NCBI GenBank assembly: GCA_963817725.1
Contig: CAWFPD010000007.1
Coordinates: forward strand, 215,750-279,749
Length of the DNA stretch: 64,000 bases
Direction: 5' to 3'
From: an uncultured delta proteobacterium
GTDB lineage: Bacteria > Myxococcota_A > Polyangia > Polyangiales > Houyiibacteriaceae
Numbering within the stretch: position 1 is the first letter of the stretch; every line of letters starts with the position of its first letter. Under the pieces are notes generated by a model. That model did not search any database, was not told where the DNA came from, and saw nothing but the letters and a program-made list of their open reading frames with translations. Made by a program: the position numbers and the translations under genes. Positions 36,061 to 62,775 of this stretch are shown in pieces.

Positions 36061-36132
36061 AGGCGCCGACTGGATTCGAACCAGCGAATGGAGGTTTTGC
36101 AAACCTCTGCCTTACCACTTGGCTACGGCGCC
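36061..36132 (-). tRNA. tRNA-Cys (GCA)
   Basis: Minus strand reads GGCGCCG-UA-GCC-AAGUGGUAA-GGC-A-GAGGU-UUGCAAA-ACCUC-CAUUC-GCUGG-UUCGAAU-CCAGU-CGGCGCC-U. Perfect cloverleaf, anticodon GCA, discriminator U73. Only CC of the CCA is encoded. Confidence 0.92.
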
Positions 36133-44840: not shown

Positions 44841-46526
44841 ATGTCGGATGACGAAATGCCGAGCGATGTGCCAACCAAGAGCGGCGATCCGCAGGGGATC
44901 GACGATGAAATCGATGAGTTTGCAGAAAGCGCATTCGATGCCCTCATGATGGGCGAAGACGGAAAGAAAAGCGTAGAGGAGGCAGTCGCCTCCGAGCCCG
45001 TCGACCGTCAGACCGGCGAATACGAGGATGTGGAGCTCGATGACGTGATCATGGTCTCCGACGTTCCTCCGGAAGAGCTTTCCGCCTCGGCGCCACCCTC
45101 GGCGCCACCGCCCTCGGCGCCACCGCCCTCGGCACCGCCGCCTGCTGCGGCTTCGGAACCGCCGGCCTCCGTGCCGCCTTCGGTATCGGAAGTGCCCGTG
45201 ACGAGCGGCGTCGAGGTGGCTCGGTTGCGTTCCGAGATCTCGGAGCTGAAGGCGAAGCTGGCCCAATCCTCCGGTGGCGTCTCGAGCCGGCAGTTTTTGG
45301 ACCTGCGCGAAGCGCTCAACAAGAAGGACAAGGAGATCCTCGAGCTCCGCGACCAAGTCAGCGCTCGCGACAAAGAGATCCTCGAGCTTCGCGACCAAAC
45401 GATTGAGCTGGAACGTTCGCGCGAAGATTTGAACGAGAGAGCAGCAGGCCTGGAGCGTTCCTTGTCGAAGGCACAGGAAGCAATCGCCAGCCTTTCCGAG
45501 GACAAAGAGAACGCGAGCAAGCGCTATGAAGACGTCAAGAGCCGCTTCGAGCGCGAGAAGACGAAGGCCGACGCCCTCGAAGGCGAGCTCGGACGTGAAC
45601 GTGAGGCGCGCGCCGTCGACATCGAAGCCTTGAAGGGAACGCATGACGCAGCCATGGCCAAGGCGCGCGCGATTCATGAAGAGGCGCTCGAGCTGTCCAA
45701 AGCGGAATCAGCTGCTTCTTTGGCAAAGGCCCGCGAAGACCACGAAGCCGCGCTTCACGCCGCCTCGAGCGAGAAGGAAACCGCATTGGCCGCCCTCCGT
45801 TCGGAGCTAGCAGACGCGCAAGCGGCCGCGTTGACGCAGGCCGCTGCTGAGGCGGACGCAGCAAGGCAAGCGGCGCTTTCGGCTCTGCGCGAAGAGCTGG
45901 AAAGCGCAGCCGCCGGCAAACTGGCGGAAGCCGAATCCGAATGGCAGCGGACCTTGGCCGAACGCGAAGCCGCGCTTCAGGCCGAGAAGCAACTCGAGCT
46001 CGACACGCGCGAGCAGGAGCACTCCAAGCAACTGGCAACCCTCGGGCGAAAGCTTGCCGACACGGAAAGCGAGCTAGCGGGCACCCGCGAGCGCGAGAAG
46101 GTGAACGAAGAGCGCGCCGTCGATCTGGAAAGCCAGCTCGAAACGACACAGGCACGTCTTGCCGCTACCGGCGCTCAACTTGCGGAGACGCAACAGACGC
46201 GCGAAAGGCTAGAGTCGGAGCTCGGGCAGACAACGGAGGCCCGCGACACGCTGCAGCGCGAGCTCGAGTCCAGCCAGGCGAGCGTCCAGACGCTCACCGC
46301 AACCAAGCGCGATCTCGAATCACGCGTGGGCTCCCTCGATGCGTTGAAGTCGCAACTCGAATCGAAGCTTTCGATGACCGTCGAGAAGATCGCAACCGAC
46401 GAGGCCTTGCTGGAACGGGTCCGCAAAGCCATGGCGATCGGGCTCAGCCTCCTCGAAGAGCAACAGAGAAATACGTACGGGGAGCTCAGCCCCGAGAGCG
46501 AAGGCGCTTCCGAGGACGCCGAGTAG
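44841..46526 (+). CDS. long coiled-coil protein with acidic N-terminus and PSAPP repeats
   Basis: 561 aa. PPSAPPPSAPPPSAPPP tract, then ~400 aa of heptad-like E/A/L/R/K-rich sequence with duplicated KEILELRDQ. 3' end overlaps the convergent kinase fragment by 41 nt. Confidence 0.7.
   Translation: MSDDEMPSDVPTKSGDPQGIDDEIDEFAESAFDALMMGEDGKKSVEEAVASEPVDRQTGEYEDVELDDVIMVSDVPPEELSASAPPSAPPPSAPPPSAPPPAAASEPPASVPPSVSEVPVTSGVEVARLRSEISELKAKLAQSSGGVSSRQFLDLREALNKKDKEILELRDQVSARDKEILELRDQTIELERSREDLNERAAGLERSLSKAQEAIASLSEDKENASKRYEDVKSRFEREKTKADALEGELGREREARAVDIEALKGTHDAAMAKARAIHEEALELSKAESAASLAKAREDHEAALHAASSEKETALAALRSELADAQAAALTQAAAEADAARQAALSALREELESAAAGKLAEAESEWQRTLAEREAALQAEKQLELDTREQEHSKQLATLGRKLADTESELAGTREREKVNEERAVDLESQLETTQARLAATGAQLAETQQTRERLESELGQTTEARDTLQRELESSQASVQTLTATKRDLESRVGSLDALKSQLESKLSMTVEKIATDEALLERVRKAMAIGLSLLEEQQRNTYGELSPESEGASEDAE
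45084..45142 (+). repeat. 15-bp tandem coding repeat (PSAPP x3-4)
   Basis: cctcggcgccacc(gc) units repeated in tandem. Confidence 0.7.
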
Positions 46527-47222
46527 GCGCCGGACGCGTCGACGCCAGACCGGGTCCGGCCGAGATGGCGCCGCTTTCGGTTGCGCAACGAACCAATAGG
46601 CCGAGATCCCGATGGGCCAGAGGTGGAGGCCCGACCTCGGCGAGCTGCAGCAGAAAGGCCCGTGCGTGCGGAGGCCGGTCCGCCGGATCGGGACGAAGGA
46701 GCGATTCGACCCCATCGACCAGCGGTCCAGGTGCGTCCGGAGCAAGGGCACGGATCGGTTCGTGTCTTCCGCGCCGAGCACGATCCAAGGTCTGTAACTC
46801 GTTGTCTCCGTCGAAGGGTCGACGACCCGCTAGACACTCATAAAGTAAGACCCCGAGGGAAAACAAATCCGACCTCGGGCTGCAAGCGCGACCAAGCGCG
46901 TATTCCGGCGCCATGTAGGCCACTTTGCCTTTGAGCGCTCCGCTCTGGATGCTTCCGGGAAGGTTCGTGGCCTTGGCGATGCCGAAATCGGCGAGCTTGA
47001 TCTCGCCCGCGTTGCTGAGGAGCACGTTCGAGGGTGAAACGTCGCGATGGATGATCCCGGCGGCATGACCTTCATCGTCGGCCGTGTGCGCGAAGTCGAG
47101 CGCCGAGGCGAGCGCATGGGCGAGGTATGAGGTCAGGCCCGAACCGAGCCTGCGCCCAGATGACTGAAGATGCCGCAGCAGCACGCGCAGATCGGTTCCC
47201 TCGATGAGCTCCAACGTCAGGT
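46486..47222 (-). pseudogene. Ser/Thr kinase gene, C-terminal (C-lobe) fragment separated by element insertion
   Basis: Begins at hinge ...LTLELIEGTDL, then HRDVSPSNVLL, DFGIAK, MAPE. No G-loop or VAIK lysine. Upstream of 47222 the frame runs into element DNA. Confidence 0.85.
47211..47222. repeat. attL core (direct repeat CCAACGTCAGGT)
   Basis: Identical to 60625-60636. Encodes LTL of the kinase on the minus strand. Confidence 0.85.
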
Positions 47223-47343
47223 TTTGAACGGCCTGATCGGAGCCTGCCGAGATCATGGCGCTTTTCCTCCAAAGCCTGCAATTCCAGGCTGTTGGAAGAT
47301 CCGTACTGAACGGCGGAGAAACGCACACTTGCGCGGATAATCA

Positions 47344-47392
47344 GTAGCAGCAATAGTAGCAGCGCAGCTTTTGTAGCAGCAATCGTAGCAGC
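47344..47392 (+). promoter_or_regulatory. four direct GTAGCAGC motifs (candidate recombinase arm-type or regulator sites)
   Basis: GTAGCAGC at 47344, 47356, 47373 and 47385, arranged as two GTAGCAGCAATNGTAGCAGCGCAG units between attL and int. Confidence 0.6.
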
Positions 47393-47430
47393 GCAGGATC
47401 AGAACCGGCGCATAGGTAGTGAGGGGGCAA

Positions 47431-48765
47431 ATGGCACATAAACATCCGGGCGTGACGCTCATGAAGGAGCAGCCAGCACGCGAGTGGGTCGACCCCCAGA
47501 CGGGCCGGAGGCGCCAAAGTGGCGCTATCTATTTCCGGGCGCGCTATCGCGATCCGGCGACGGGTAGATACCGCTACGAGACGCTTCCGCGGGAGTTCGT
47601 CCACGAGAAGCAGGTCTACGACACACGCCTGAAGCATGCGCGGGCGCTGTGGGCAAAGTTGAAGGCGGATAAGCTGCTCGTCGAAGGAGCGAAGCATCGG
47701 GTCAAGCCGTCGCCTGTTGGACAGCACGCGATTCCACTCGCGGACGCGATCGAACGATACTTCGGAGACAAGCCACGATTGAGCGCTAAGACGGTTGAGC
47801 AGAAGCGTCGGAGCCTCAACGATTTTCTCGCATGGTGCGCTGATCATAAGATCCACAGCACGGACGAGCTTACAGCGGCGGCGCTGCGGGACTGGCGAAC
47901 GCATGTCGAGTCGCGCGGCCTTCGCATACCGGCCAAGGGAGCTGGCGTCGGACACACGAAGAAGCAAACCGACAAGCCTCGGGCGGATTGGTCGGTTGCT
48001 ACTGAGATCGGCCACGTGGCGACGGCGCTAAAGCATCTTCGGAGTCAGCGAGAGCTGTTTCGGCATATCGATGCGGACGACTTCGCCGAGCGTCTTAAGA
48101 CCTTCAAGGTCACGACGCGACGGAAGAAGAAGCCGCTTAGTCGGAAAGATCTTCCACGCGTCGTCCAGGCGTGTATTGAGCGTGATGCGGAGACGCAGCC
48201 GAACGGAAGCCCGCGTCATCCGGAGGTCGCACCCTTCTTCGTATTTTTGCTTCTGAGTGGTTTACGACCAGGCGAGGCGTTCGACCTGAAGTGGGACTCG
48301 GTGGAGCTTGACGAAGACGACGAGGGCAAAGGCGTGATCTACGTCCATGCGAGCAAGACCGGCGTCGAACGCATGGTCGAACTCTGGGTGAGTCCCGCGT
48401 GTCGACGCTTGTTGATCGCGAAGAAACAACGGGATGGTGGCGAAGGCAAGGTGTGGTCTCTGACTCCGGTGCAGATCTTGAGCGCCTACACTTCTATCCG
48501 GCGCAAGACGCAGCTGAAGCATTTCAGCCCCCAGGTGTGCCGGGTGACGGCGGGTTCGTATTTAATCAACTCCGCGATATACCCCCGATCTGTGGAGCGA
48601 CGGACGGCGGAGCAGCTTGGCCACGACGAGCGAACCGCGCGCGCGTACTATTGGGGGACGGTGCGAGGTCTCGACCAGGATGCGCGGACGATTGAAGAGG
48701 TCATGGGAATCAAGGCTGAAATGGAGCAGATCCTCGAGTCGATCCAACCGAAAGCCCGGCGATGA
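47431..48765 (+). CDS. tyrosine recombinase / phage-type integrase
   Basis: Catalytic-domain pattern LLLSGLRPGEAFDLKWDSVEL, HFSPQVCRVTAGSYL, LGHDERTARAYYWG. ATG at 47431 after GAGGGGG (tracked GTG at 47419). Confidence 0.9.
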   Translation: MAHKHPGVTLMKEQPAREWVDPQTGRRRQSGAIYFRARYRDPATGRYRYETLPREFVHEKQVYDTRLKHARALWAKLKADKLLVEGAKHRVKPSPVGQHAIPLADAIERYFGDKPRLSAKTVEQKRRSLNDFLAWCADHKIHSTDELTAAALRDWRTHVESRGLRIPAKGAGVGHTKKQTDKPRADWSVATEIGHVATALKHLRSQRELFRHIDADDFAERLKTFKVTTRRKKKPLSRKDLPRVVQACIERDAETQPNGSPRHPEVAPFFVFLLLSGLRPGEAFDLKWDSVELDEDDEGKGVIYVHASKTGVERMVELWVSPACRRLLIAKKQRDGGEGKVWSLTPVQILSAYTSIRRKTQLKHFSPQVCRVTAGSYLINSAIYPRSVERRTAEQLGHDERTARAYYWGTVRGLDQDARTIEEVMGIKAEMEQILESIQPKARR

Positions 48766-49010
48766 CGACGCCGAAGAAGCGACCGACGAAGCGCGCGCCG
48801 AAGAGTGCGAAGGCGAAGAAGGCCGCGCCGAAGAAGCGTGCGCCGAAGAAGGCCCCGGCGAAGAACGGCCCACTATTGCCCCCCGACCATCCTCTGCGAG
48901 CGAAACTTGAAGGCGTGCTGGGATTGGTTTTTATGAGTGCGCACCAAGAGCGCGACCTTGGCCTGCTCGAGCTATACGAAGGACTACGAGAGCTGATTGA
49001 GTCGGATTGA
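48762..49010 (+). CDS. small basic protein with histone-H1-like KKAAPKK tail
   Basis: ATGA overlap with the int stop. TTPKKRPTKRAPKSAKAKKAAPKKRAPKKAPAKNG followed by a short helical domain. Confidence 0.6.
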   Translation: MTTPKKRPTKRAPKSAKAKKAAPKKRAPKKAPAKNGPLLPPDHPLRAKLEGVLGLVFMSAHQERDLGLLELYEGLRELIESD

Positions 49011-49049
49011 ACTTGGGGCTCGCAGAAATGGGGGGAGACTAAACTAGCT

Positions 49050-49490
49050 GTGCACAAGTTCTATGAACGAGTCGACGGCATGGTGGCGACGTTCGTTAAG
49101 GAGGAAGCGAGCGAGCGCAATAAGGTCGGGGCTGATTCGTGGTCGGAGGACCGCGCCAAGATCCGGGGATATATCGCAAACCCAATACGCGTGGCTGAAG
49201 CCTACATAACCCTTCTAAGCTTCTCGGACCTCCGGTTCGGGGTTCCTTTGTCCTGCTCGGGTCACGAGATAGTTGCGGGTCTTTCCGGTGAGGACACCGA
49301 GGCGGCGGAGCGGTTCCGCGTCGCTGTCGACAAGGTGTATACGGAAATCGAGCCGATGCTCAAGGAGGCCTGGACCCCCCAAACAGGCAAGGCGATTATG
49401 CGGGCGGGCTTGCTTGCCTTGGGTCTGCCAAAGAAGCGCAGTGAGTATCTGATCTCTCTCGTGCCCAAAACTGATCCCAATTTGGGGTAG
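49050..49490 (+). CDS. hypothetical protein
   Basis: 146-aa ORF, GTG start, protein-like composition. No motif recognised. Confidence 0.5.
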   Translation: MHKFYERVDGMVATFVKEEASERNKVGADSWSEDRAKIRGYIANPIRVAEAYITLLSFSDLRFGVPLSCSGHEIVAGLSGEDTEAAERFRVAVDKVYTEIEPMLKEAWTPQTGKAIMRAGLLALGLPKKRSEYLISLVPKTDPNLG

Positions 49491-49615
49491 CGGGCTCTTT
49501 GCGTTTTTGCGTGCGCCATTCTCTGCGCATGCGTTTAAGACATAACCAGGCGCGGGACTCGGCCGTCGAAGACACCGACGAGAGTTCCGCAATTGAACAA
49601 CTGATCCGCCCGGCA

Positions 49616-49831
49616 ATGGAGGCCGCCTACCCGGTCAACCTCACCCGGGCGATGCTCAAAGAGGCGCTTCAATGTTCCGATCGGTTCATCGACGAACTGA
49701 CCGAAACGGGGGAGCTCCCATCCATCCAACGCAAGCGCGGTAAGTCCGGTTCTCGGCGCATCTACCCTCGCGAAGGCGTCATTCGATATCAAATCCGTAA
49801 TGCGAAGTCGGAGGGACGCTATCATGCATAA
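49616..49831 (+). CDS. excisionase/AlpA-like HTH protein (start uncertain)
   Basis: LTRAMLKEALQCSDRFIDELTETGELPSIQRKRGKSGSRRIYPREGVIRY resembles HTH_17/Xis-family proteins. In-frame ATGs at 49499, 49529 and 49616. Confidence 0.5.
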   Translation: MEAAYPVNLTRAMLKEALQCSDRFIDELTETGELPSIQRKRGKSGSRRIYPREGVIRYQIRNAKSEGRYHA

Positions 49832-50006
49832 CCCGTCCGACGATCAGCTCTACGAGCTCGTACTCGAAACCCTCGTCACCGATGGCGTCCTCGCGCGCAC
49901 CGCTTGGCGCACACCGGACGGCCACGTGATCTACGTCCTAAGCGAGAGCTTCGATGTAGCCGTCCACGACATGCCGTGCGTGGTCGAAGAGGGGCGGCTG
50001 GTATGA
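49824..50006 (+). CDS. hypothetical small protein
   Basis: 60 aa. Start overlaps the previous stop, and its stop overlaps the next start (ATGA). Confidence 0.4.
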   Translation: MHNPSDDQLYELVLETLVTDGVLARTAWRTPDGHVIYVLSESFDVAVHDMPCVVEEGRLV

Positions 50007-50608
50007 CGATGGTCGCTACCACCGTCACGATCGAGCGCCATGCGCTCCGTGTCGCCGTCGAGACCGCCGCAGTGGCGATGAGCACCGACGATCTTCGGTC
50101 CCACCTCGCTGGTGTCCACTGCGAGTTTCGTGGCGACGCCTTGATCACGTGCGCAAGCGATGGGCACCGACTGGTCCAGACCACCGTTCCGGTCCTCGAG
50201 CTCGAAGGTCAGGCGGCGGCGGCCTTCATCCGACGCGAAGACACGAAGCGCCTTCTGAAGACGTTGCGCTGCAAGAAATCCCAACAGTCCGAGCCGGTCA
50301 GGGTGGAAATCGGAGAGACGGTGAAAGTGACCGGCACCTTCGAGACGGTGGAGCTTGAAAACGGTAATGACGAGCCGACGCCTCCATACGGCAAGGTGAT
50401 CCCCCCACGTCGCGAGCCCGACGACAAAGGTCCAGGTCTCTTCGCACTGAATCCGACGTACTTGGCCGATCTGGGTCTGCTCGGTCGGCTGCTTCCATCC
50501 GCCAACGGCGCTGCGATCAGCACGACGTCAGCACGTGAGCCGGTTCGCATCGACGTCGGCAACAAAGAGATCTCCTCGATCTATCTCATCATGCCGATGC
50601 GGATCTGA
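50003..50608 (+). CDS. truncated DNA polymerase III beta sliding-clamp-like protein (about 1.5 clamp domains)
   Basis: DLRSHLAGVHCEFRGDALITCASDGHRLV parallels DnaN domain II (DVRYYLNGMLFE..L..VATDGHRLA). PPYGKVIP parallels FPDYRRVLP. C-terminus LNPTYLADLG...IYLIMPMRI parallels FNVSYVLDVL...YVVMPMRL. Only 201 aa versus about 370. Confidence 0.75.
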   Translation: MTMVATTVTIERHALRVAVETAAVAMSTDDLRSHLAGVHCEFRGDALITCASDGHRLVQTTVPVLELEGQAAAAFIRREDTKRLLKTLRCKKSQQSEPVRVEIGETVKVTGTFETVELENGNDEPTPPYGKVIPPRREPDDKGPGLFALNPTYLADLGLLGRLLPSANGAAISTTSAREPVRIDVGNKEISSIYLIMPMRI

Positions 50609-50727
50609 TCGTGCCGCACCGGAGCAATCAACCCGACCCACGAACGGCCGCGATTGTCGTGGGCTCGGTCAACCCAGCGGCTGAAGGAGGTGCCCATGGG
50701 CATCATTTTTGAAAGAGGCGGGTCATC

Positions 50728-50931
50728 ATGTTGACGCCCGTCGAGTCAGTGAAACGAGGCGATCGTCTCATGCACCCGCATAGCGGTTGGATGGCGGTCA
50801 ACTACGCACCCGAGCCCGTCTTGGGTCGGGACGCGTGGGAACTTGAGGTCATCGACGACCGGAGTGAGATTCGCGAGCTTTGGTTCTTCGAGGGCGACCT
50901 CATCGAAGTGGAGGAGCGCCATGACGGCTGA
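50728..50931 (+). CDS. hypothetical small protein
   Basis: 67-aa ORF; its stop lies close to the next start. Confidence 0.4.
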   Translation: MLTPVESVKRGDRLMHPHSGWMAVNYAPEPVLGRDAWELEVIDDRSEIRELWFFEGDLIEVEERHDG

Positions 50932-51277
50932 TCGAGAGAGTGGGCTCACCACTACGTCCGGCCTGACGGGGTTCAATAACGTACAGCCAGGCGACGGGTT
51001 CTTGACGATCACCTCACCGACGACCGGCCTACACGCCGTGATCGACGCCGGAGATATTCTCGATATCGAGGAGATGCTTCAGGGCATTCGCCTCACGGTG
51101 AAAACCGCGAGCGGCTCCGAAGCGTTCGAAGTGGACGGCGACCCGCGCGTCCTGCGTGCAAACCTCAACACCGCCTTGGTGTTGGCGAACGCTCGCCGTG
51201 GTCGACGAGAACCGACACAGCTTGGATTTTCAGAGCGTGTGTTGGAGGTGACCTATGCGGAGGACGACGATGCATAG
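50921..51277 (+). CDS. hypothetical protein
   Basis: 118 aa starting from ATG 50921 (MTADRESGL...). Overlaps its neighbours at both ends. Confidence 0.45.
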   Translation: MTADRESGLTTTSGLTGFNNVQPGDGFLTITSPTTGLHAVIDAGDILDIEEMLQGIRLTVKTASGSEAFEVDGDPRVLRANLNTALVLANARRGRREPTQLGFSERVLEVTYAEDDDA

Positions 51278-52025
51278 CCCCAAAAACCAGAAAGGCCGGC
51301 GGAACGCCGACCCAGCTGATGACAAGCTCCCGGTCAAGGAGAATGACTCGAAGGAGTCTACCATACCGGCCAAGGCGTCCAAGCCTAGGTCTGAATACGA
51401 GGCGGCCGTCGATGCGTTCGACGATCTGATCTCGCTCCCGGAAGTCTCCGGAACCGGCCCCATCAAAGGCGTTCCAGAGCCTGTCGAATACTCGATCTCG
51501 ACCTATCTCGACCCGAGTCGCTGGACGATGGTTGATCCTCGGGAGGAATACGCGCGCGTCGTGACGCTCCTGCGAGATCCGAATCGGCTCGCGACACGCA
51601 AAGGCGAGCGAGGTTTCAACCTCTACCTCGTGACCGCCCCCATCGCGCTTCAGCTTTTGGAGACATATCCAAACCTGCGGCGCAATCTTCGCAAGTACGA
51701 TCTCCGGGTTGCCAACTACAGGCACACTCACGAGATCGTCATCTACTGCATCATGCATCCCGTTGACGGGAATGAGATGAGCGAGGCGGCCTACCGGAAG
51801 AAGCTCCTATGCGTCGCCGACTGCCAACGGGATTGGCATATGGTGGGCCCAACGCCCGACGGCGAGATCGGCACATTCCCAACGGAGCTACCGAATCGCG
51901 ACCCGGTCAACTTTGACAAGCTCTATCGCGGAGCGCCTATGAAGGAGATCCTTTACAAGGCGTTTCGAGATCGGGTGATCGACGATTGGGACCACGCCGT
52001 CATTCGAGAGATCCGAGGCGTCTAG
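51255..52025 (+). CDS. hypothetical protein (immediately upstream of the polymerase)
   Basis: 256 aa with a basic, disordered N-terminus followed by a globular domain. No motif recognised by eye. Confidence 0.55.
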   Translation: MRRTTMHSPKNQKGRRNADPADDKLPVKENDSKESTIPAKASKPRSEYEAAVDAFDDLISLPEVSGTGPIKGVPEPVEYSISTYLDPSRWTMVDPREEYARVVTLLRDPNRLATRKGERGFNLYLVTAPIALQLLETYPNLRRNLRKYDLRVANYRHTHEIVIYCIMHPVDGNEMSEAAYRKKLLCVADCQRDWHMVGPTPDGEIGTFPTELPNRDPVNFDKLYRGAPMKEILYKAFRDRVIDDWDHAVIREIRGV

Positions 52026-52028
52026 CTT

Positions 52029-53879: not shown

Positions 53880-53932
53880 TCCTTCCTAGTCTTTCCATAG
53901 TCCATCCAGAGTCTTTCCCTTTAAGTCTTTCC
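53878..53932 (+). promoter_or_regulatory. iteron-like array: five phased 9-mers AGTCYWTCC
   Basis: Copies start at 53878, 53888, 53899, 53910 and 53924 (spacing 10, 11, 11, 14 bp). The array fills the gap between the polymerase stop and the wHTH gene start. Confidence 0.7.
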
Positions 53933-54349
53933 GTGAGTAAACCAACACCACCTCCGTTCATCGCCAACGCCCCGCTGACCTGGCTCCGCCGGGCCCAGGA
54001 AGCAGGGGGCGAGCATGGGCTTTGCCTCGCGTTGGTGATCTGGAGAGAGTGTCGACTCGGGCACACCCGACGGAGGCACAGCCGAGGGACAATCCCGGGT
54101 TTCGTGAAGCTCCCGTACGGAAGGGCCGCCGCCTTATTCGATCTCTCGCGCCGCACGTTCGGCCGGAAGATCGACCAACTCGAAGAGGCCGGCTTGATCG
54201 CGATCCGACGTCCTGGAGGGAACGCCGCCTATCAGGTGCGGGTTCTGGCGCTCCCCGGCGAAGAGCATTGGACGAACGTGTGGCTCGGTCTGCCACCACC
54301 ACCTGAACAGCTCGACATCGAGTTTGCTGGGCCTAGCGGTCGGAACTAA
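53933..54349 (+). CDS. winged-helix DNA-binding protein (candidate replication initiator or repressor)
   Basis: GTG at 53933. LFDLSRRTFGRKIDQLEEAGLIAIRRPGGNAAY resembles a MarR/Rep-type wHTH. The upstream part of the tracked ORF overlaps the polymerase. Confidence 0.55.
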   Translation: MSKPTPPPFIANAPLTWLRRAQEAGGEHGLCLALVIWRECRLGHTRRRHSRGTIPGFVKLPYGRAAALFDLSRRTFGRKIDQLEEAGLIAIRRPGGNAAYQVRVLALPGEEHWTNVWLGLPPPPEQLDIEFAGPSGRN

Positions 54350-54438
54350 CCGCGTTTCCCAAATTGGGCACTGACGCCTAATCTTGTTGAAGACTCGCTT
54401 CGCGTGGTGGTGCTGTAGAACGGGAGGCTGCGGCGTTG

Positions 54439-55080
54439 CTAGAGCCGTCGATCAAACTTCAAGAAGTAGGGCTCGGGTGGGACGCCCTGCCAGTCGGCGG
54501 GCCACTCCAACGTCTTGATTCCGCAGGGGACCCTAGCATCGCTGCTAGTGTTGAAGGGCTCTGAAATCTCAAGGCAGTTATCTCCGATTTTAGCGCTGAA
54601 GATAGTCACATCAGGCCCCTCAATGCCGTTGAATCCGTAACGGACGGTGTTGGGCTGGTAGGTCCCAAACGGAGAAACTGGCTGCCACGGCAGCGTGGAT
54701 GGGTCTGGATGTTCGGGTATCGCTTCGTCAATGCACGCGCCGTCGTCGGCTAGGTAGACGGGCTCGCCTTGGCAACCAGGTTCGAGGAAAAAGGCAGGGA
54801 TGGGGGGTGAGCCTTCGGAGGGCGTTGGGTCGATCCGCGTGAACTGCCACGGCTGCTCATAGCGCGGGTCGTCAGACTTGATCACCTGGACGTGCACAAC
54901 CCAATCAAACTCGGGCATGTAGAAAGAGGCGCTGGTCCCACTGAAGTCCAGTACCTCCCATTCGGCACCGCTGCCATCGACGATGTAGAGCCCGCTCCGT
55001 TCAAGCGGCCTCGGCCGTACGTCACAGGTGTAGCCAACGATCGCGATCAGCCCGATCAGAAGAACGACTCTTCGTAGCAT
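54439..55080 (-). CDS. secreted/lipoprotein-like hypothetical protein
   Basis: N-terminal MLRRVVLLIGLIAIVGYTC; AGGAGG upstream; 213 aa. No recognisable domain. Confidence 0.6.
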   Translation of the reverse strand: MLRRVVLLIGLIAIVGYTCDVRPRPLERSGLYIVDGSGAEWEVLDFSGTSASFYMPEFDWVVHVQVIKSDDPRYEQPWQFTRIDPTPSEGSPPIPAFFLEPGCQGEPVYLADDGACIDEAIPEHPDPSTLPWQPVSPFGTYQPNTVRYGFNGIEGPDVTIFSAKIGDNCLEISEPFNTSSDARVPCGIKTLEWPADWQGVPPEPYFLKFDRRL

Positions 55081-55358
55081 CTCAACCTCCTGTCGCAGCC
55101 TGCGCCCGGAGCTGGGGACTGCTCACGGTTTCAGCGGAGTCTCCCTTGAATCACGAATCGGGGGTCACTGTCTAGGGCCGGACGAGTGGATATGATGACA
55201 CTACGCGCCCGTGACTGCCGAAAGCTGTAATATTATCATCATAGATACAGCGACAGTGCACGATGCGGAGTGGGACTGGTCGCGGAGCCAGCACGGAGCA
55301 CGTCGCGCGCTCGGGTTCTCTCACGCGTGTGCCGATCCGAGCCCGGAGCGAGCCCGGA

Positions 55359-55379
55359 GTAGCAGCGTTTCGTAGCAGC
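55359..55379 (+). promoter_or_regulatory. internal pair of GTAGCAGC motifs
   Basis: GTAGCAGC at 55359 and 55372 (13-bp phase) inside a 630-bp non-coding gap. Confidence 0.5.
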
Positions 55380-55710
55380 ACGCCGTGTTCGGCAATGATT
55401 CCGGGTGATTCCGAGCCCGGACCACCACCCTCAATAGGTAGAGACCCACCCCGGTCTAGGCAAAAGGTACCGAAATGTGGGTGGCGGTGGTCACGAAACG
55501 CACCAAATTCCGTCCAAATAGCGCCCCATCCCCAAATGGGGTCACTGCTCCCTCCCAGATTCGCCATAACGGCCCCTAGCTGCCCGTCTGAGGCGTTTAT
55601 CCGGTTCGCAGGTACCTGACTAGCGTCTAGTACCGTTTAGGGACCGTCTGGTTGACAGGATGTAAAGTTGGCCGCCGCCTACGGCTGCACCTCAAACGCA
55701 CCCACGTCGC

Positions 55711-56214
55711 TCAGAACACGAATCGCGATCGTGCAAGGTCCCATTGCACGCGGTGCGGTGTCGCGTTGTCGTGCGCTCGCTTCAGCTCGCGCACCTGTCG
55801 CTTGCGGGCGCGCCATCGGCCGCCTGAGATGGCCATCCCCAGGACACCTCCGAATCCTACAAAGCCCCCTGCCAGCGCAACGCTGGCCCCGGCGACGCCC
55901 CGGTCTAAGTCAGACCAAGGATCGCTTCCGATCGACGCTGACGCCATGGTCGCGCCGCCGGCTATCATAAGTACTGCCCCCACACCGAAAAGAACGGAAG
56001 AACCGACAAGGCCGTTTCTTGCTCGCTGGACGCGAAGCTGCATCTCCTCAAGCGTGAACCCATCGCCTGTGCGCGGCGGACTCGGCTCAACCTCAACTCC
56101 AGCAGTGTACTGCTCGAGCTTCAGCGCACGATTGGTATCTTCTTTTGCTTGTGCGCTCGCGCCTTGGGGCAAAGCCGCCACCATCACACACAACACGCTT
56201 CCCAGACGCCACAC
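55711..56214 (-). CDS. secreted membrane protein, hypothetical
   Basis: Signal peptide MWRLGSVLCVMVAALPQGASA and two Gly-rich TM segments (SSVLFGVGAVLMIAGG, ALAGGFVGFGGVLGMAI). Confidence 0.55.
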   Translation of the reverse strand: MWRLGSVLCVMVAALPQGASAQAKEDTNRALKLEQYTAGVEVEPSPPRTGDGFTLEEMQLRVQRARNGLVGSSVLFGVGAVLMIAGGATMASASIGSDPWSDLDRGVAGASVALAGGFVGFGGVLGMAISGGRWRARKRQVRELKRAHDNATPHRVQWDLARSRFVF

Positions 56215-56297
56215 GACAACCTCCCGATATGGCTCGGCATTGGTCTAGCGAGTCTACATCAACGATTACCGGGAGTGGAAGGCGGGTGTCACCGGCG

Positions 56298-56629
56298 ATG
56301 AAACCAATTGTCGGCTCACTGCTCTGTCTCGTTCTGGGTTCACTCATCGTCGTGGGGATGCGGGGATTCCAACGGTACAAACGGCCTTGGCGGCGATCTT
56401 GTCTGCGCCTCAGACGACCCCGAGTATGGCAACACGATCCCCTGTCCGGGTGGAACGGAAACCCTCGACTTCTGCGTCAATACCGGCAATGGCGACTGCT
56501 ACTACGTGCTCGGTGGAGACCAAGGTCGGCTGCGGCAACTGCATAGAAAACAACTTCAACCTCGGCAGACTGCGGCTCGCGCAAAGCAATGGGGGCGCCA
56601 GCGCGGAAGGCTGTAGCCGCCGGTGTTGA
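56298..56629 (+). pseudogene. possible twice-frameshifted Cys-rich lipoprotein gene
   Basis: Signal peptide MKPIVGSLLCLVLGSLIVVG in one frame. CGDSNGTNGLGGDLVCASDDPEYGNTIPCPGGTETLDFCVNTGNGDCYYVLGGD in the next. VGCGNCIENNFNLG...EGCSRRC in the third. Confidence 0.3.
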
Positions 56630-56690
56630 CGCAGTTGTTCCGGTTGACTCTGTTGACACAATCGGCGAAAATTACCTACAGGCGCGGACC

Positions 56691-56885
56691 TTGGCGAAGC
56701 GACTTATCAGCTTTCGAATTGACGACGAGTTAGCGGCCGAGCTCGACCGCGATATGGCACACGCCAAGCGCGAAGCCGAGGCACGGGATAGCGAGTTTTC
56801 GGAGCCGATTTACCTCCGGATGCTGCTCCGCAAAGGCCTCCGGTCGCGCGAGCGCCAACGCAAGGTCCGCAAGAGCAAACCTTAA
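56691..56885 (+). CDS. ribbon-helix-helix (CopG/Arc-like) protein, start uncertain
   Basis: KRLISFRIDDELAAELDRDMAHAKRE has an RHH beta-strand/helix pattern. Tracked start at 56589; TTG at 56691 avoids overlap with the upstream ORF. Confidence 0.5.
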   Translation: MAKRLISFRIDDELAAELDRDMAHAKREAEARDSEFSEPIYLRMLLRKGLRSRERQRKVRKSKP

Positions 56886-56908
56886 TCAAAACCCCCAATA
56901 GGATCCCG

Positions 56909-57244
56909 ATGATCAAAGCCCCAGATGGTTTCAACTATCGCTTTACAGCAGCAGCGCCGGTCACCATCACCGATTACGTTCTGCCCCACCGCACCGACAG
57001 TGCGAAGCACCAACGGATAGCGGACAAGCTCGACACCATGATCGCGAAGATAGCCGAGCTACATCAAAGGTTCCTCGAGATCGAGGAGCAAGAGCGCAAA
57101 GATGCCTTCGGCACTTGGTGGCGCGAGGAATGCGACCCAAGCACGATGAAGCCGGAGAAGCTGCGTAGGTCCAGGCTTGACGCGTTTGCAAAGCGAATCG
57201 CGAAGAGCGCCAGCTTCCGGCAGCGTTTGCTGGAGGACGCATGA
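56909..57244 (+). CDS. hypothetical protein
   Basis: 111-aa helical ORF. ATGA overlap with the next gene. Confidence 0.5.
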   Translation: MIKAPDGFNYRFTAAAPVTITDYVLPHRTDSAKHQRIADKLDTMIAKIAELHQRFLEIEEQERKDAFGTWWREECDPSTMKPEKLRRSRLDAFAKRIAKSASFRQRLLEDA

Positions 57245-57678
57245 GTCAGCCGGTCACTGTGCGCGAAACGGGGAAAGCCTCGACTCCTAGGAAAGCGGTC
57301 CCGCCGAGTAAACTAACTACTGCCGCGTTTGAGGTTCCAGATCCGGCTGAGCCGCGAGCGGTCGCCACGTTGAACCCACGAACCAAGCTCGATCGTTTCA
57401 TTGCAGCTCTTGATTCGGTTCCGTGTCTTACGCCGCTGCTCGAGCGAACAGGCTATCCGGTTGTTTCAATTGACGGGCGGGGTCCTGGCGTTGTCGGCTT
57501 TCGCTGTCCCAAGTGCGGAACGAGCGTCATCAGCGCAAGCGGCCATCCCAACGTTCGGCTTACGAGCGGGCGTTATGGTACCGACCTTCAACCCCAACGC
57601 CTCGTCTGTCTGGTCTGCCGGTGGGATGCAACAGCTTCAACCGTAGCGCCGATCGTGCTTGGCGGAGACGCAGTATGA
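57241..57678 (+). CDS. zinc-ribbon hypothetical protein
   Basis: CPKCG...CLVC four-Cys motif. ATGA overlaps at both ends. Confidence 0.5.
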   Translation: MSQPVTVRETGKASTPRKAVPPSKLTTAAFEVPDPAEPRAVATLNPRTKLDRFIAALDSVPCLTPLLERTGYPVVSIDGRGPGVVGFRCPKCGTSVISASGHPNVRLTSGRYGTDLQPQRLVCLVCRWDATASTVAPIVLGGDAV

Positions 57679-58091
57679 CTCAGTACGAAACTTTGCGAAT
57701 GGTTGCGCCCGAAGCTGAGCCGAAGCTGAGCCGATTCACTGCAGCACGTTACGACGGTACGATCGCGGTTGACGTTTTGGCTGAAGAGGCATTGGAAAAG
57801 ATCCTACCGGCAGAACACAGCACAACGGCCGACCTGCTATTGATCGAAGCCTTCGACCTTGGCCAAGCCGTTGTGATCGCCAAGAGCGGTGACGAACGGT
57901 TGCCGTGGCGCAGGACGCGGATCACACGCGACGGTCAAGTGGCTGAGAAGTGGCACCGGCAGCCGATGAATGCGACGGAACGAAGCCGACTCGACAGGGT
58001 GCTACGGGCCGAACGCTTGAAGCGCGAGGACCAGCTACGGCGCGAGGTTATCTCGTTCGAGCAGCAGCGACGTGCCGAGCTTGGTTTGTGA
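57675..58091 (+). CDS. hypothetical protein
   Basis: 138 aa from ATG 57675. GTGA overlap with the next ORF. Confidence 0.5.
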   Translation: MTQYETLRMVAPEAEPKLSRFTAARYDGTIAVDVLAEEALEKILPAEHSTTADLLLIEAFDLGQAVVIAKSGDERLPWRRTRITRDGQVAEKWHRQPMNATERSRLDRVLRAERLKREDQLRREVISFEQQRRAELGL

Positions 58092-58279
58092 CGCACCCTT
58101 GGCAGAACCAGGACTACGCGCAGTCGCAGCTCCTCGACATCATCGCGCAAGTGCTAGGAGCTCGACCGGACGAAACCGGGGAGACTGCGTATCCCGAAGA
58201 GAGCATCAACGAGGCAGTCATTCGCATTGCGGACGCTCTCGAGCGTATTGCTTCGGTGATGGACAAACAGCCGGACTGA
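58088..58279 (+). CDS. hypothetical small protein
   Basis: 63 aa, GTG start overlapping the previous stop. Confidence 0.4.
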   Translation: MTHPWQNQDYAQSQLLDIIAQVLGARPDETGETAYPEESINEAVIRIADALERIASVMDKQPD

Positions 58280-58520
58280 TCACGGACAGGTTGAAGCGCC
58301 AGGGAGAATTCGTGGCATTGGTGCCACCTTGGGCGCGGCTTCCTGACCCAGAGCTAGCGTTTCCCTCCACTCTTGTGCGGTTAGGATCGCGGGCTCCGAC
58401 GTAGCCAGGTTCGTTTGGGTTTCCTTTCCCTGAGCGAGCCTGTGCTAGGTCGTTTTCCCTTTGGCTTACCGATTTTCGCATTCTGCCGTGGGGTCCCTTA
58501 CCCTGTGTGATGGGGGCACC

Positions 58521-58856
58521 ATGGGAAGTTGGTTCCGGCTGTTTCTGTTTGTCGTGTGTCTGGCGGCATGTGAGACGGAACCAGACGCGCCAGAGCCGCC
58601 GAAAGAAGCATCGAGCGGGGAAGAGAGTCTGTGTCGCACACTGCAGCACGAGCGCCTGATGGAAGATCTCGGCCCAGGCGACGTTCTTCTTTGGCCTGCG
58701 CGCCCGAGAATGCCCCCCCAGCGAGAAGGCGATTGTCGCATAGGGCTGGATGGCCTTCAGGCCACGCCGACCCCAACGGAACGGGCCACCCCTGTCCTGG
58801 AGCAGGACAAGCCGTCTCGAACCGCTCACTCAAGGACCAGTAACGCAGAAGAATAG
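58521..58856 (+). CDS. small lipoprotein, hypothetical
   Basis: MGSWFRLFLFVVCLAAC lipobox. Confidence 0.5.
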   Translation: MGSWFRLFLFVVCLAACETEPDAPEPPKEASSGEESLCRTLQHERLMEDLGPGDVLLWPARPRMPPQREGDCRIGLDGLQATPTPTERATPVLEQDKPSRTAHSRTSNAEE

Positions 58857-58905
58857 GGTGTTGGAGATGATCTGTCGCAGTGAAACAAGCGAGCCGAATC
58901 GAGTC

Positions 58906-59475
58906 ATGGGACGGGGGTTGATGAATGTGATCGCGCCCTTGACCTTCCTCGTGCTCTCAACCGCGTCCATCGCAAGCTCGCAATCACTCAGTGCGCTTGT
59001 CCAAAAGGAGGTGGCACAGCACATCAAGAATGCCGAGCTGACGATCGGATCGACTCGTTCGTTCTTCATGGAAGCGGCGATGGCGGCCGATATGTCCTGC
59101 CAGAATCTCAACGACGAGGCTACGGCGGTCGCTTGCTTCCCATCAGGGGCAAAGGGTTTAACGTGCAACACGGCACGGTTCGGCCCCAAAGATCTGATAG
59201 CTTCATACTCGCTCGACTTTGGCCTGCAGAGAATGTGCTCGGTTGCTAAATCCTACATGTTTTCCAAGTATGGGAAGCCTCATCGCTCGGAAACTGCCGG
59301 CGGTGGCTCATCCGTATTCTATTGGAGTTACCCGCAATTAAAGAACAGACTGCTTAGCTATCAGGAGTTCCCACCCGTCACTCGCACGACGCAATGGGGA
59401 ACCACCGAAGTCGCACAATGGTGCCATGTAACATACGGCGTCGGTCAGCTTGTCCGCCCCTTGCGGCTTCCGTGA
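58906..59475 (+). CDS. secreted hypothetical protein
   Basis: Signal peptide MNVIAPLTFLVLSTASIASSQS. Start at 58867, 58906 or 58921. Confidence 0.55.
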   Translation: MGRGLMNVIAPLTFLVLSTASIASSQSLSALVQKEVAQHIKNAELTIGSTRSFFMEAAMAADMSCQNLNDEATAVACFPSGAKGLTCNTARFGPKDLIASYSLDFGLQRMCSVAKSYMFSKYGKPHRSETAGGGSSVFYWSYPQLKNRLLSYQEFPPVTRTTQWGTTEVAQWCHVTYGVGQLVRPLRLP

Positions 59476-59512
59476 GTGAGTTTTGCGCCTTCGATGCTGC
59501 GCGCTAGTTGAA

Positions 59513-60202
59513 TCATCGCTCCAACAATCGCTCGAAAGTTTGCCACGCTGCATAAAGGGCCCCGGCGACAAAACCAAATATGATCCATCCAATCGGACCT
59601 TTGTTGAGTAGGCCGAAGAAACCGTCCGAAAACAGGCCGTCGCGCGATTCAACCGGTTCCGCCTTCCTTGGAGGGGGCGCCGACCGCTGTGCTTCAAGGC
59701 TCAACTCTCCACCCACACGGATCAACTCCTGGAGTCTGCCGATCGCGGTGCCCCGAGCCTCTCCGTTCCCTCGCTTGTATCCGATACATGTGGCTGACTC
59801 GTAGGAAACTTCGCCGCGGTCCAGCATCGTAAGCGCGGTCTGTTGTTCCGCACTCATACGATCGACATCGCTGCTGGCGATGATCAACACCAATGGAGCG
59901 CCGACGCCGGACTCGTCAGTCGCCTTCGAGATAAGCGCGCGCGCTTCGTCGGCGTTTCGGGCCTTCGTGCGCCAGATCGTCGCGAACTCCAGCTCGCTCC
60001 TCAAAGGATCGCGACCGCTGGGGAAACCCTTCCTCAACACCGTGTAGTTGGAACGCGAAGCCTCGGGCAGACCCCTCAGGGCAGCGACACACACAAACGG
60101 CCGCCCGTCCTTTTGGAGCTTCTTATTCTCAAAGTAGCCGATGAGGGTCCAACCGAGCCCAAAGAGCAGGAAAACACCAGAAAGCACCAAGAAATATTCC
60201 AT
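59513..60202 (-). CDS. membrane protein with N- and C-terminal TM helices, hypothetical
   Basis: MEYFLVLSGVFLLFGLGWTLIGYF ... IGWIIFGFVAGALYAAW flank a ~170-aa soluble domain. Confidence 0.55.
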   Translation of the reverse strand: MEYFLVLSGVFLLFGLGWTLIGYFENKKLQKDGRPFVCVAALRGLPEASRSNYTVLRKGFPSGRDPLRSELEFATIWRTKARNADEARALISKATDESGVGAPLVLIIASSDVDRMSAEQQTALTMLDRGEVSYESATCIGYKRGNGEARGTAIGRLQELIRVGGELSLEAQRSAPPPRKAEPVESRDGLFSDGFFGLLNKGPIGWIIFGFVAGALYAAWQTFERLLER

Positions 60203-60532
60203 GGCTCCTCGCGGCAATGGGCGAGCCTACCAGACATGATGGGAAAGGGCGTGTCAACCGCTTGCTTCAGTCGCAGAGTGAATCAATCCGGTAATTCCGG
60301 AGACTCACACCGAGTGTGCGGACTCGAGCACGTGGGAGCGGCCGCCGTACTCATGGAAGCTCAAAGAGCTGCGCAAGCAATACCGCAATGCCGACGCCGA
60401 TAGTCGAGCTCGAATCGTGCAAGTTGGCAGAGCGATACGACGGATGCAGGCGGAGTGGCCAGAGCGCGCGACCGATCACGTCCGGTGTGTTTTAGAAGCG
60501 GTTCACAGATTGTGATGGCTAGCGTGAAAACG

Positions 60533-60553
60533 GTAGCAGCAAACAGTAGCAGC
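60533..60553 (+). promoter_or_regulatory. pair of GTAGCAGC motifs near attR
   Basis: GTAGCAGC at 60533 and 60546 (13-bp phase), about 72 bp from the attR core, in the same orientation as the attL cluster. Confidence 0.6.
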
Positions 60554-60619
60554 GCCGGATGTGGTCTCAGCCAAGTATTTGGAATCGTAAGATTATATTG
60601 CCTAGGATAACCAGGCATC

Positions 60620-60901
60620 CTATACCAACGTCAGGTAGTGAGCGCCATCGGTCACGCCAAAATCGAGGACGCGCGCGATGTGGCCATGGTGTAGGAGCGC
60701 AGACAACCGAGCCTCCCGCAAGAACATCTCCACGAAATCGGGGTCGCCTGCGAATGCCGGTAGGATGCGCTTGAGGCACACACGCTGCTCGAAGCCCTCG
60801 GGCCCCCGCTGCACGGCCACGAAGGTCTCGGCCATCCCACCGATCCCGAGCCGCTCAATCAACTCATAGCTGCCGAAGCGGCGTGGGAGCGGTGAAGACA
60901 T
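60620..60901 (-). pseudogene. Ser/Thr kinase gene, N-terminal (N-lobe) fragment
   Basis: YELIERLGIGGMAETFVAV (G-loop), VCLKRI (catalytic Lys), FLREARL (helix C Glu). Ends ...DGAHYLTL, then V-stop as the frame runs into element DNA. Confidence 0.85.
60625..60636. repeat. attR core (direct repeat CCAACGTCAGGT)
   Basis: Identical to 47211-47222. Confidence 0.85.
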
Positions 60902-60949: not shown

Positions 60950-62044
60950 TCACCGGAGCGCGTCTTGGAGCGCGTCCAGGCAGAGCTTCACGTGTCCCGG
61001 CGTCGCCGAAGCGCCCATCAATCCGATTCGCCATGCCTTTCCTTTGAAATCACCCAAGCCCCCGCCAATCTCGAGACCGTGCTCTTCGAGCAACCGGGCT
61101 CGCACGACGCGGTCATCGACGCCCTCTGGAATACGGACCAGGGTGAGGGGAGGGAGGCGCACTGAAGGCTCGACGGGAAGTTCCAAGCCGAGCGCGCAGA
61201 GACCCTGCCAAAGCGCCTCTGCCTGCTCCCGATGACGGGCATAGCGATGGTCGAGCCCTTCATCGAGGGCTAGTTGCAGCGCCTCGTGCAATGCGAAGAT
61301 CATGTTGACCGGGGCGGTGTGGTGATAGACACGATCCCCGCCGAAGTACTGGCCGATTAGATTCAAATCGAGATACCAGCTCTGCACGGATGTCTTACGC
61401 TGTGACAAGACGCGGCGGGCACGCTCCGAAAACGACACCGGAGAGAGCCCGGGAGGGCACGAGAGACACTTCTGCGTCCCCGAGTAAGCGGCATCGATGC
61501 CGAACCGGTCGACCTCGACGGGCACTCCGCCAAGTGAGGTCACGGTGTCGACAATCAAGAGCGCACCGCACGAATCCGAAATGGCGCGAAACGGAGTCAG
61601 GTCTTGGAGCACGCCCGTGGACGTCTCGGCATGGACCAGTGCGAGCACCTTGAACGAATGCCCCTTGGCAGCCTTCGCGACCTCGTCGGGATCGAGGGCC
61701 TCTCCCCACGGCGCATCGACGAGGGTGACGTCGGCGCCGCAACGGCGCGCAACCTCCGCCATACGTCCCCCAAAGACTCCGTGACGACAGATCAGCGCCC
61801 GGTCTCCAGGCTCGATCAGGTTCACGAAGCAGGTCTCCATGCCCGCAGAGCCCGTCCCCGACATGGGAAGCGTCAGCGCGTTGTTCGTGCCGAACACCTT
61901 CCGCAGCATGCTTTGCGTATCGTCGAGAATCTGCAGGAAGACGGGATCGAGGTGACCGATGGTCGGCAGCGAGAGCGCTTCGAGCACCCGCGGCGGGACA
62001 TCGGAGGGGCCAGGCCCCATCAGCGTACGCTTGGTCGCTTTCAC
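60950..62044 (-). CDS. class V aminotransferase (serine-pyruvate / alanine-glyoxylate type)
   Basis: [42 protein letters not shown] (PLP lysine). Confidence 0.88.
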
Positions 62045-62712: not shown

Positions 62713-62775
62713 GCTCTCCCCCGCTCGCATATCTCACCGTCCTTGGCTTGTGGTCGAATCCTGCACAAATGTCCC

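Follow-up and report, generated by a model that had tools for sequence, protein, structure and literature searches.

The window analysed here, a 64,000-nucleotide stretch of contig CAWFPD010000007.1 from an uncultured soil myxobacterium (assembly GCA_963817725.1), carries a 13,402-bp element that splits a conserved Ser/Thr kinase gene at a 12-bp repeat, a real, clean and probably reversible insertional inactivation. We consider it likely that the insert is a small, self-replicating integrative element of a rare, undescribed family, and that its presence in the kinase gene is a reversible insertional polymorphism generated by the element's own cycle. The evidence consists of the insertion itself and its exactness, the intact orthologues of the kinase, the features of the integrase, and the contigs on which the element was found free.

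A kinase gene split at a 12-bp repeat

Both parts of the kinase gene lie on the minus strand, at the two ends of the element. The features concerned, together with the two conserved upstream neighbours of the gene, are the following:

46486–47222, minus strand: 3' part of the kinase gene, residues about 90–333, with the HRD, DFG and APE motifs and the tail
47211–47222: attL copy of the core, CCAACGTCAGGT; its coding strand, ACCTGACGTTGG, corresponds to the codons for LTL plus one base
47223–60624, plus strand: integrated element, 13,402 bp, GC content 59.7% against 63.4% in the flanks
60620–60901, minus strand: 5' part of the kinase gene, residues 1–92, followed by a V and a stop codon from element DNA
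60625–60636: attR copy of the core, CCAACGTCAGGT
60950–62020, minus strand: class-V aminotransferase, conserved upstream neighbour of the kinase
62062–62730, minus strand: LexA (PF01726 and PF00717), two genes upstream of the kinase, 89–94% identical in relatives

Translation of the 5' part gave a 93-aa kinase N-lobe ending in ...DGAHYLTLV*, at the place and with the LTL end that an earlier, sequence-only reading of the window had described. The C-lobe is contained in the open reading frame (ORF) 46486–47328 (minus strand), where it is preceded by 35 codons of foreign sequence; gene callers start this ORF at an ATG of the element (47256), which results in a 256-aa product beginning with MISAGSDQAVQN-LTLELIEG. 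For this half, the earlier reading was right about the content, but its coordinates (46486–47222) were one base out of frame, the codon starting at 47223. The 12-mer it had reported at both sites is present in exactly two copies in the window, none being expected from 100 shuffles, and the identity between the two copies ends at both 12-bp edges.

Deletion in silico from core to core, which removes one copy of the 12-mer plus the intervening 13,402 bp, produced a 333-aa Ser/Thr kinase with a single, uninterrupted Pfam Pkinase match (residues 12–272, E = 8.8e-34), in agreement with the seamless protein claimed before. The attachment sites read ...GATGAGCT-CCAACGTCAGGT-TTTGAACGGCC... for attL and ...GGCATCCTATA-CCAACGTCAGGT-AGTGAGCGCC... 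for attR, from which an attB of the form ...GATGAGCT-CCAACGTCAGGT-AGTGAGCGCC..., with the spanning string ...CACTACCTGACGTTGGAGCTCATCG..., and a full attP of the form ...GGCATCCTATA-CCAACGTCAGGT-TTTGAACGGCC... are predicted.

The search for intact orthologues in related genomes, which the sequence-only reading had proposed as a check, was successful, revealing the same neighbours and the same junction peptide. A scan for orthologous loci with one genome per species returned 80 loci, in 22 of which an uninterrupted orthologue was present (61–84% identity). The flanking gene sets on both sides fell within the fetched DNA in six loci (L004, L012, L016, L018, L021, and L033), the upstream set being only partly covered in another one (L001). 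The gene order common to these six loci and to the two halves of the window is a 344-aa gene, LexA, the aminotransferase, the kinase, a coiled-coil gene and a 320-aa gene. The junction peptide HYLTLELIEGTDLR is kept in nearly all orthologues, with single conservative substitutions only. In addition, more than 1000 homologues of the kinase were detected in the protein collection, and nearly all of the best 120 (more than 100 of them) are exactly 333 aa long. The closest orthologue in the databases (83% identity) is an intact kinase flanked by LexA and the aminotransferase, with ACCTCACCTTGG at the position of ACCTGACGTTGG in the window; it comes from the Joint Genome Institute (JGI) samples 3300038470 and 3300038408, sisters of the sample (3300038469) that contains the closest relative of the element, described below.

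The reconstructed kinase retains 121 of the 124 positions that are conserved in at least 97% of 112 orthologues, the three changes being conservative, and 18% of these orthologues deviate at conserved positions at least as much as it does. Thus, the decay of the fragments, named in the earlier reading, together with a lack of excision junctions, as a sign that would speak against it, was not seen. Since the orthologues are contiguous, their neighbours and junction peptide are kept and the conserved positions are retained in the window, the two pieces are halves of a single conserved gene that was either split recently or kept under selection. No interruption at this site was found in the 22 orthologous loci or in the more than 100 database orthologues, and no gene of the insert was present in any of the 80 loci.

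The insertion was found in three assemblies with 99.9–99.98% identity: the 1.14-Mb contig of the window, contig_25640 of ERZ25039500 in the European Nucleotide Archive (ENA), and GCA_049288685.1. The explanation by a misassembly, or by two naturally separate genes encoding kinase fragments, is effectively refuted; its only support is the general possibility of error in metagenome assemblies. Against it, attL and attR were reproduced in a long-read assembly, in a short-read metagenome-assembled genome (MAG) and in Logan contigs, so the insertion is not an assembly artefact. As regards separate genes with other neighbours, the opposite was seen, the orthologues being contiguous everywhere with the same neighbours, and kinase halves encoded as separate genes in different places were found in none of the 80 loci.

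A paralogous Ser/Thr kinase, with 33% identity to the split one and unconnected to the element, is encoded at 8402–9124 (plus strand) of the window.

Gene content, candidate arm sites and relatives of the element

The insert contains the following genes and non-coding features, listed from attL to attR:

47344–47392, plus strand: P-arm, with two pairs of GTAGCAGC repeats (four copies; spacing 12 bp) at a distance of 121 bp from the core
47431–48765, plus strand: tyrosine integrase, 444 aa, starting 209 bp inside attL
48762–49490, plus strand: lysine-rich 242-aa gene, overlapping the integrase stop codon
49529–49831, plus strand: 100-aa helix-turn-helix (HTH) protein, weak candidate for an excisionase/recombination directionality factor, 2.3 kb inside attL
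50003–50608, plus strand: DNA polymerase III beta-clamp-like protein, central domain only (PF02767, E = 6e-10)
51270–52025, plus strand: 251-aa protein directly upstream of the polymerase, the most conserved gene of the family
52029–53879, plus strand: 616-aa DNA polymerase of family A, whose N-terminal part has a DxE exonuclease motif
53933–54349, plus strand: small HTH protein (weak assignment), inside a segment that varies between copies
54439–55080, minus strand: 213-aa secreted-looking protein, cargo
55081–55710: non-coding stretch of 630 bp with the third GTAGCAGC pair, a pair conserved in the distant relative L086
55711–56214, minus strand: 167-aa membrane protein
56589–59475, plus strand: seven small genes (98, 111, 145, 138, 63, 111, and 202 aa) without family match
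59513–60202, minus strand: 229-aa membrane protein just inside attR, in the same orientation as the kinase
60533–60553, plus strand: P'-arm, two GTAGCAGC repeats, 71 bp from the core

The integrase gene, which the sequence-only reading had correctly placed some 200 bp inside attL, encodes a protein that matched phrog_1 (E = 9e-26) and, slightly above the cut-off of 27.1 bits, PF00589 (27.9 bits). Its catalytic residues R279, K309, R371, H398, and Y407 are invariant across the three members of its family, and the first His of the HxxR box is replaced by Gln in the window and by Gln or Lys within the family. The other two members, with 76% and about 30% identity, are the only relatives detected among 5.8 billion clustered proteins, and a sequence search of the PDB with the integrase gave no match. 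The N-terminal segment HPGVTL...RARYRDP looks like an arm-binding domain.

The polymerase matched PF00476 (E = 1.8e-18) and phrog_17 (E = 5e-37); searches of phage and plasmid databases with it reached about 22–25% identity at best, to mycobacteriophage Pol I and to cellular PolA proteins encoded on megaplasmids. The 251-aa protein showed 92% and 80% identity in the relatives of the element, with three related clusters among 1.84 billion representatives. No relatives of the integrase, the polymerase or the 251-aa protein were found in IMG/VR. Scans of the called genes against Pfam, PHROGs and NCBIfam gave matches to domains of the integrase, the polymerase and the clamp-like protein, and weakly to HTH domains, only, and revealed no capsid, portal, terminase, tail or lysis gene, with ten small ORFs without family match leaving room for a very divergent virion, and no relaxase, coupling protein or FtsK-like translocase family was matched in the profile scans of the called genes. 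From its gene content, the best description of the insert is that of a plasmid-like integrative replicon belonging to a rare family not described before.

The octamer GTAGCAGC occurs 13 times in the window, where 1.03 copies would be expected, and eight of these copies lie inside the element, all of them on one strand. In addition to the repeats of the P-arm and the P'-arm, an internal pair is located at 55359 and 55372, with a counterpart in L086 at 616 and 629. This layout is repeated in the related elements L084 and L086, and the repeats are candidate arm-type binding sites of the integrase. The 630-bp non-coding stretch with the internal pair could possibly be a regulatory site or a replication origin.

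The closest relative, L084 (JGI 3300038469, Ga0436466_0040630), is a 6-kb contig that includes the integrase (76% identity), the HTH gene, the clamp-like gene and the 251-aa gene (92%), as well as the same four P-arm repeats. Its flank (positions 62–108) does not correspond to the kinase: TGGTAGGCACGGGCGGGATTGAACCGCCGACC... appears to be the antisense 3' end of a tRNA, with the T arm GGCGG-TTCAATC-CCGCC and the acceptor strand, an assignment based on reading of the sequence and on an antisense-tRNA-like Rfam match. No whole tRNA was found at this flank, as expected for a displaced half. The more distant relative, L086, is a free contig of 12.3 kb whose integrase is 29% and whose polymerase 83% identical to those of the window; along it, two arm repeats are followed by a core region, four further arm repeats and int. 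With one relative beside a tRNA fragment and another one on a free contig, the element family is not tied to the kinase gene.

The P'-arm of the window shows positional correspondence to the tRNA side of L084 in a MAFFT alignment, with similar distances to the arm sites. That the P'-arm represents a decayed 3' half of a tRNA was considered and dropped, as the best local alignment, of GTCA-GGTTTT with GTCAAGGTTTT, was reached in 668 of 2000 shuffles. The sole tRNA of the window, tRNA-Cys(GCA) at 36059–36132, is unconnected to the element.

Free copies and the probable reversibility of the insertion

The arrangement found in the window would be explained by the following course of events. The integrase, acting on arm and core sites, would recombine attP with a 12-bp match in codons 90–93 of the kinase gene, within the codons of one of the most conserved segments of the protein, creating attL and attR and splitting the gene. 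The N-fragment still stands behind its own promoter and ends after 93 residues, and the C-fragment is left without a start, glycine loop, catalytic lysine and helix C, that is, without the ATP-binding lobe, so that the kinase is inactivated. As the crossover is conservative, recombination between attL and attR by the integrase would reverse the process and restore the kinase exactly. This is what the sequence-only reading had proposed for a precise excision, and it was borne out in silico, the conserved gene being contiguous otherwise. The excised element could then replicate with its own polymerase and clamp-like protein and, given that it carries its own replication genes, excision would serve the element first.

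Two contigs from long-read assemblies, on which the element is free, lend indirect support to such a cycle. Contig_25639 of ERZ25039500 (L089; 13,385 bp), from the same assembly as the integrated copy on contig_25640, is a circular permutation of the element, in which window positions 55518–60617 are followed directly by 47236–55516, and it closes within one base. A free variant of 13,412 bp, contig_75785 of ERZ25039549 (L105), shows the same junction between right and left ends. Because such a junction is impossible from single integrated copies, circles or tandem copies of the element exist. Regarding the two products of excision that the sequence-only reading had suggested to look for, a circle junction and a repaired attB, closed free contigs were thus found, but neither an intact attP nor the attB sequence was.

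The junction of the free contigs (...GATAACCAGGCA-ATCGGAGCCTGCC..., at L089:5100 and L105:9585; junction J) lies between the copies of a 3-bp repeat (ATC) and of a 5-bp inverted repeat (CAGGC/GCCTG). The two free variants have no other private markers in common, and in each of them a diverged segment adjoins the contig's own ends: L089 showed 33 differences in 53917–55504, and L105 had 85% identity over 57009–58538. In copies that are otherwise nearly identical, these two variable segments would indicate that mosaic variants are present in the environment. Short-read assemblies also break within the element, at 55809 and 59320.

Further signs of an empty site came from Logan contigs of the short-read run ERR11594398. 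The contig with the aminotransferase and the N-half of the kinase (L099) ends at 60625, the last base common to attR and attB, and the contig with the integrase (L095) starts at 47193, exactly 30 nt before the first attL-specific base. Logan assemblies are built with k = 31, and with this value both end positions follow the pattern expected of a branch between occupied and empty sites. Two other causes for these break points were rejected. Excision at junction J, leaving a scar in the chromosome, would place the branch at 47235/47236, 13 bp further in than the observed 47222/47223. A variant element at the same site was also discarded, since no variant integrase was detected in the protein collection and L095 is unbranched through the integrase.

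A scan of the JGI metagenome collection for any of the four att junctions, carried out with CCAACGTCAGGTWKTGARCGSC, gave a single match (L081). It is regarded as due to chance, since L081 does not resemble the window elsewhere and has no integrase close to the match; this collection does not include the organism of the window, so the scan is uninformative.

Other contig ends were observed in the Logan data. Contigs L107 and L108, from runs ERR11523667 and ERR11594398, both start at 60377, in the non-coding right arm; a search for a repeat explaining these breaks found none, which suggests that a second sequence variant exists beyond 60377. Contig L102 (SRR28002690) ends inside the core, at 47217. 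The next base, 47218, occupies the third place of a Leu codon, CTG in the window and CTC in many orthologues, and a second strain whose core differs may occur alongside in SRR28002690.

Several observations weigh against a functional cycle of integration and excision. In both free contigs 60617 is joined to 47236, with the loss of 32 bp (TCCTATA, the core and TTTGAACGGCCTG), so that the attP expected from excision at the core is seen in neither, and this deletion may be either that of a real core-deleted episome or an artefact of the repeat graph of the long-read assembler. As L095 is unbranched through the core toward the element, no attP circle is detectable in ERR11594398. No contig with a repaired attB was retrieved, nor was any intact allele above 83% identity found in the protein collection, and the empty site is read from contig break points only. 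In the 242-aa gene that follows the integrase, a T at 49008 creates a TGA at codon 83, and this is either a real inactivating variant of the window copy or a consensus error. Finally, the excisionase-like HTH protein of the sequence-only reading lies about where it had been placed (2.3 kb inside attL rather than 2 kb), but its identity as an excisionase is weak: its matches are below the cut-offs (HTH_69, E = 0.001; HTH_17, E = 0.009), and a single-sequence AlphaFold (AF2) model had a pLDDT of 60 and was unusable.

Some of these points would fit a dead-end insertion, with the element trapped and the kinase newly turned into a pseudogene; strain mixtures and assembly would then have produced the free contigs as well as the break points. 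Such an explanation would accommodate the premature stop beside int, the loss from the free contigs of the core needed for integration, the absence of a repaired allele from the databases, and the presence of co-occurring variants that break assemblies (53917–55504, 57009–58538; 55809, 59320, and 60377). We regard it as very unlikely, since a contig joining right and left ends cannot arise from integrated single copies alone, and the attB branch points are matched with single-base precision by two independent contig ends. In addition, no damage is seen in the integrase, its candidate arm sites or the two halves of the kinase, and the 242-aa gene is open in five other copies of the element (L087, L088, L089, L091, and L092), which have a C at 49008 and thus CGA, coding for Arg.

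Our interpretation therefore remains that of a reversible polymorphism, in which the element seems to be still mobile in nature, and the population probably holds both occupied cells, with the kinase off, and empty cells, with the kinase on. We infer that excision at the 12-bp core takes place in living cells and that the empty sites derive from it, not from cells that were never occupied. As for a timing of excision by the host, no evidence was found.

A probable second insertion family, known systems and the question of a switch

The kinase gene also appears to be the target of other insertions in the clade. Four related MAGs contain extra, truncated 5' copies of the kinase gene, consisting of the promoter region and residues 1 to about 193, which all end in ...KGKVPY|IN* where the intact gene reads PY|MAPEYA. 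A conserved 60-bp sequence, AAACTGACNGACCAGAATCATTGAGAAATCCCCGCAAAAC..GGGGAACCTGTTTCC, follows every truncated copy, and up to three or four of these copies are present per genome, with different cargo genes between them. They were located at the following sites:

L003: 387–922
L006: 1872–2623
L020: 3870–4079, 5670–5686, and 9908–10608
L022: 10001–10608
L023: 10001–10591
L041: 1407–1829
L002: 74–90

In L003 and L006, an intact kinase gene lies 1.7–2.6 kb downstream, so those insertions restore the gene, unlike the element of the window. The truncated copies look like the products of a second, gene-restoring insertion family that uses another conserved segment of the kinase gene. This shows that two different conserved segments of the gene serve as insertion points for foreign DNA in the clade.

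The sequence-only reading had likened the arrangement to the regulated switches of the skin/sigK or comK type. According to such a model, the host, or the element together with the host, would excise the insert under starvation, development or the SOS response, turning the kinase on, followed by re-integration or by loss in terminal cells. Part of the data is compatible with it: precise in-frame reconstitution is possible, with undecayed fragments, an intact integrase and intact candidate arm sites; copies of the element occur outside the chromosome, and empty sites probably exist. In addition, the target is a clade-wide single-domain kinase that stands directly downstream of lexA (with the aminotransferase gene between them) and shares its strand in every relative whose sequence extends that far, which makes a link to the SOS response conceivable, and the lack of detectable lysis and virion genes means that excision need not kill the cell.

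However, we consider a regulated switch unlikely, and the analogy drawn in the earlier reading was not supported. The insertion was seen in one strain lineage only (99.9–100% identity), without the long-standing and conserved association of element and target gene across strains or species that characterises regulatory-switch elements. The exact 12-mer was found in none of the orthologues examined, the nearest sequences having one or two synonymous differences, a further point against a switch shaped by evolution. Of the element's relatives, the closest one lies beside a tRNA fragment and the more distant one is a free contig, the element's own polymerase points to excision for the sake of its replication, an intact attP was not seen, and the free contigs lack the core. 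Moreover, the status of the host as a developmental bacterium is assumed, the host being an uncultured relative of Polyangiales MAGs.

Complete prophages inside protein-coding genes, such as phi10403S in comK of Listeria (PMC7397523) and phiSa3int in hlb of S. aureus (PMC6597384), share a site-specific integrase with the window element, together with a precise excision that restores the gene and occupied and empty states that can coexist, as proposed for it. These prophages have genes for virions and lysis, their association with the target gene is found widely among strains, and their conditional excision has been demonstrated by experiment, whereas no virion genes were detected in the window element and it was found in one strain lineage.

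The intervening elements of spore formers, skin in sigK (PMC5025042), SPbeta in spsM (PMC4191935) and gin in gerE (PMC5595907), also present a split ORF, that of a regulatory or developmental gene, with a short att repeat inside, a recombinase gene at one end and, as proposed for the window element, reconstitution by excision, and gin shows that an intervening element need not be a prophage. Those elements are vertically fixed and excise in a terminally differentiating cell under a developmentally controlled recombinase or directionality factor. A further difference is that the window element has genes for replication and shows up as a free molecule. SpyCI in mutL of Streptococcus pyogenes (PMC4129442), an island that excises, replicates as an episome and toggles a host gene, resembles it in being small and capsid-less and in the effect of its integration state on that gene. 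It differs in being of the phage-inducible island type, in its location at the 5' end of mutL, from where it blocks an operon, and in its demonstrated growth-phase-dependent cycling.

The best architectural match to the window element is provided by pipolins and by the integrative plasmids of actinomycetes. In pipolins, which usually target tRNA genes and are also found as free circular plasmids, a tyrosine recombinase is accompanied by the element's own polymerase, a primer-independent enzyme of family B (PMC5695915, PMC7385651). Without being a pipolin, the window element is like both groups in pairing a tyrosine recombinase with a replication enzyme of its own, in occurring as free molecules and in having its nearest relative beside a tRNA fragment. 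Their polymerase is of family B (piPolB), in contrast to the family A polymerase and truncated clamp-like protein of the window element, and there is no sequence relationship between them. Neither does such a relationship exist with the actinomycete plasmid pSAM2, and the window element has no recognised transfer gene. pSAM2 encodes a RepSA-type initiator and transfer genes.

Finally, the window element shares gene interruption, an element-encoded site-specific recombinase and short direct repeats with the nifD, fdxN and hupL elements of Anabaena. These are gene-interrupting elements of 10–55 kb in a multicellular or developmental bacterium, removed by their own recombinases at short direct repeats, with an excision that is irreversible and restricted to heterocysts; they are ancient and widespread in their lineage.

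In conclusion, events of the kind described here are well known; what is new is that they involve this element family and this host group. No account of a gene-splitting element in myxobacteria, organisms with very large kinase repertoires and multicellular behaviour, came up in our literature search. There is a small chance that a capsid-less, polymerase-encoding element cycling between chromosome and episome acts as a reversible stress or developmental switch of a lexA-adjacent kinase. If so, it would be the first gene switch of the active-lysogeny type in Myxococcota, and one run by a plasmid-like replicon instead of a prophage, and the regulated reconstitution of genes by excision, known from Firmicutes and cyanobacteria, would then include signalling kinases in myxobacteria. 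The second, unrelated insertion family in sister species would make the kinase gene a dedicated docking gene for mobile DNA. Switch or not, the window offers a clean, natural att site within a protein-coding gene, with relatives that show the empty site, a very rare and undescribed family in which a tyrosine integrase occurs together with a family A polymerase and a truncated clamp, and a small kinase gene used by two types of insertion in related species.

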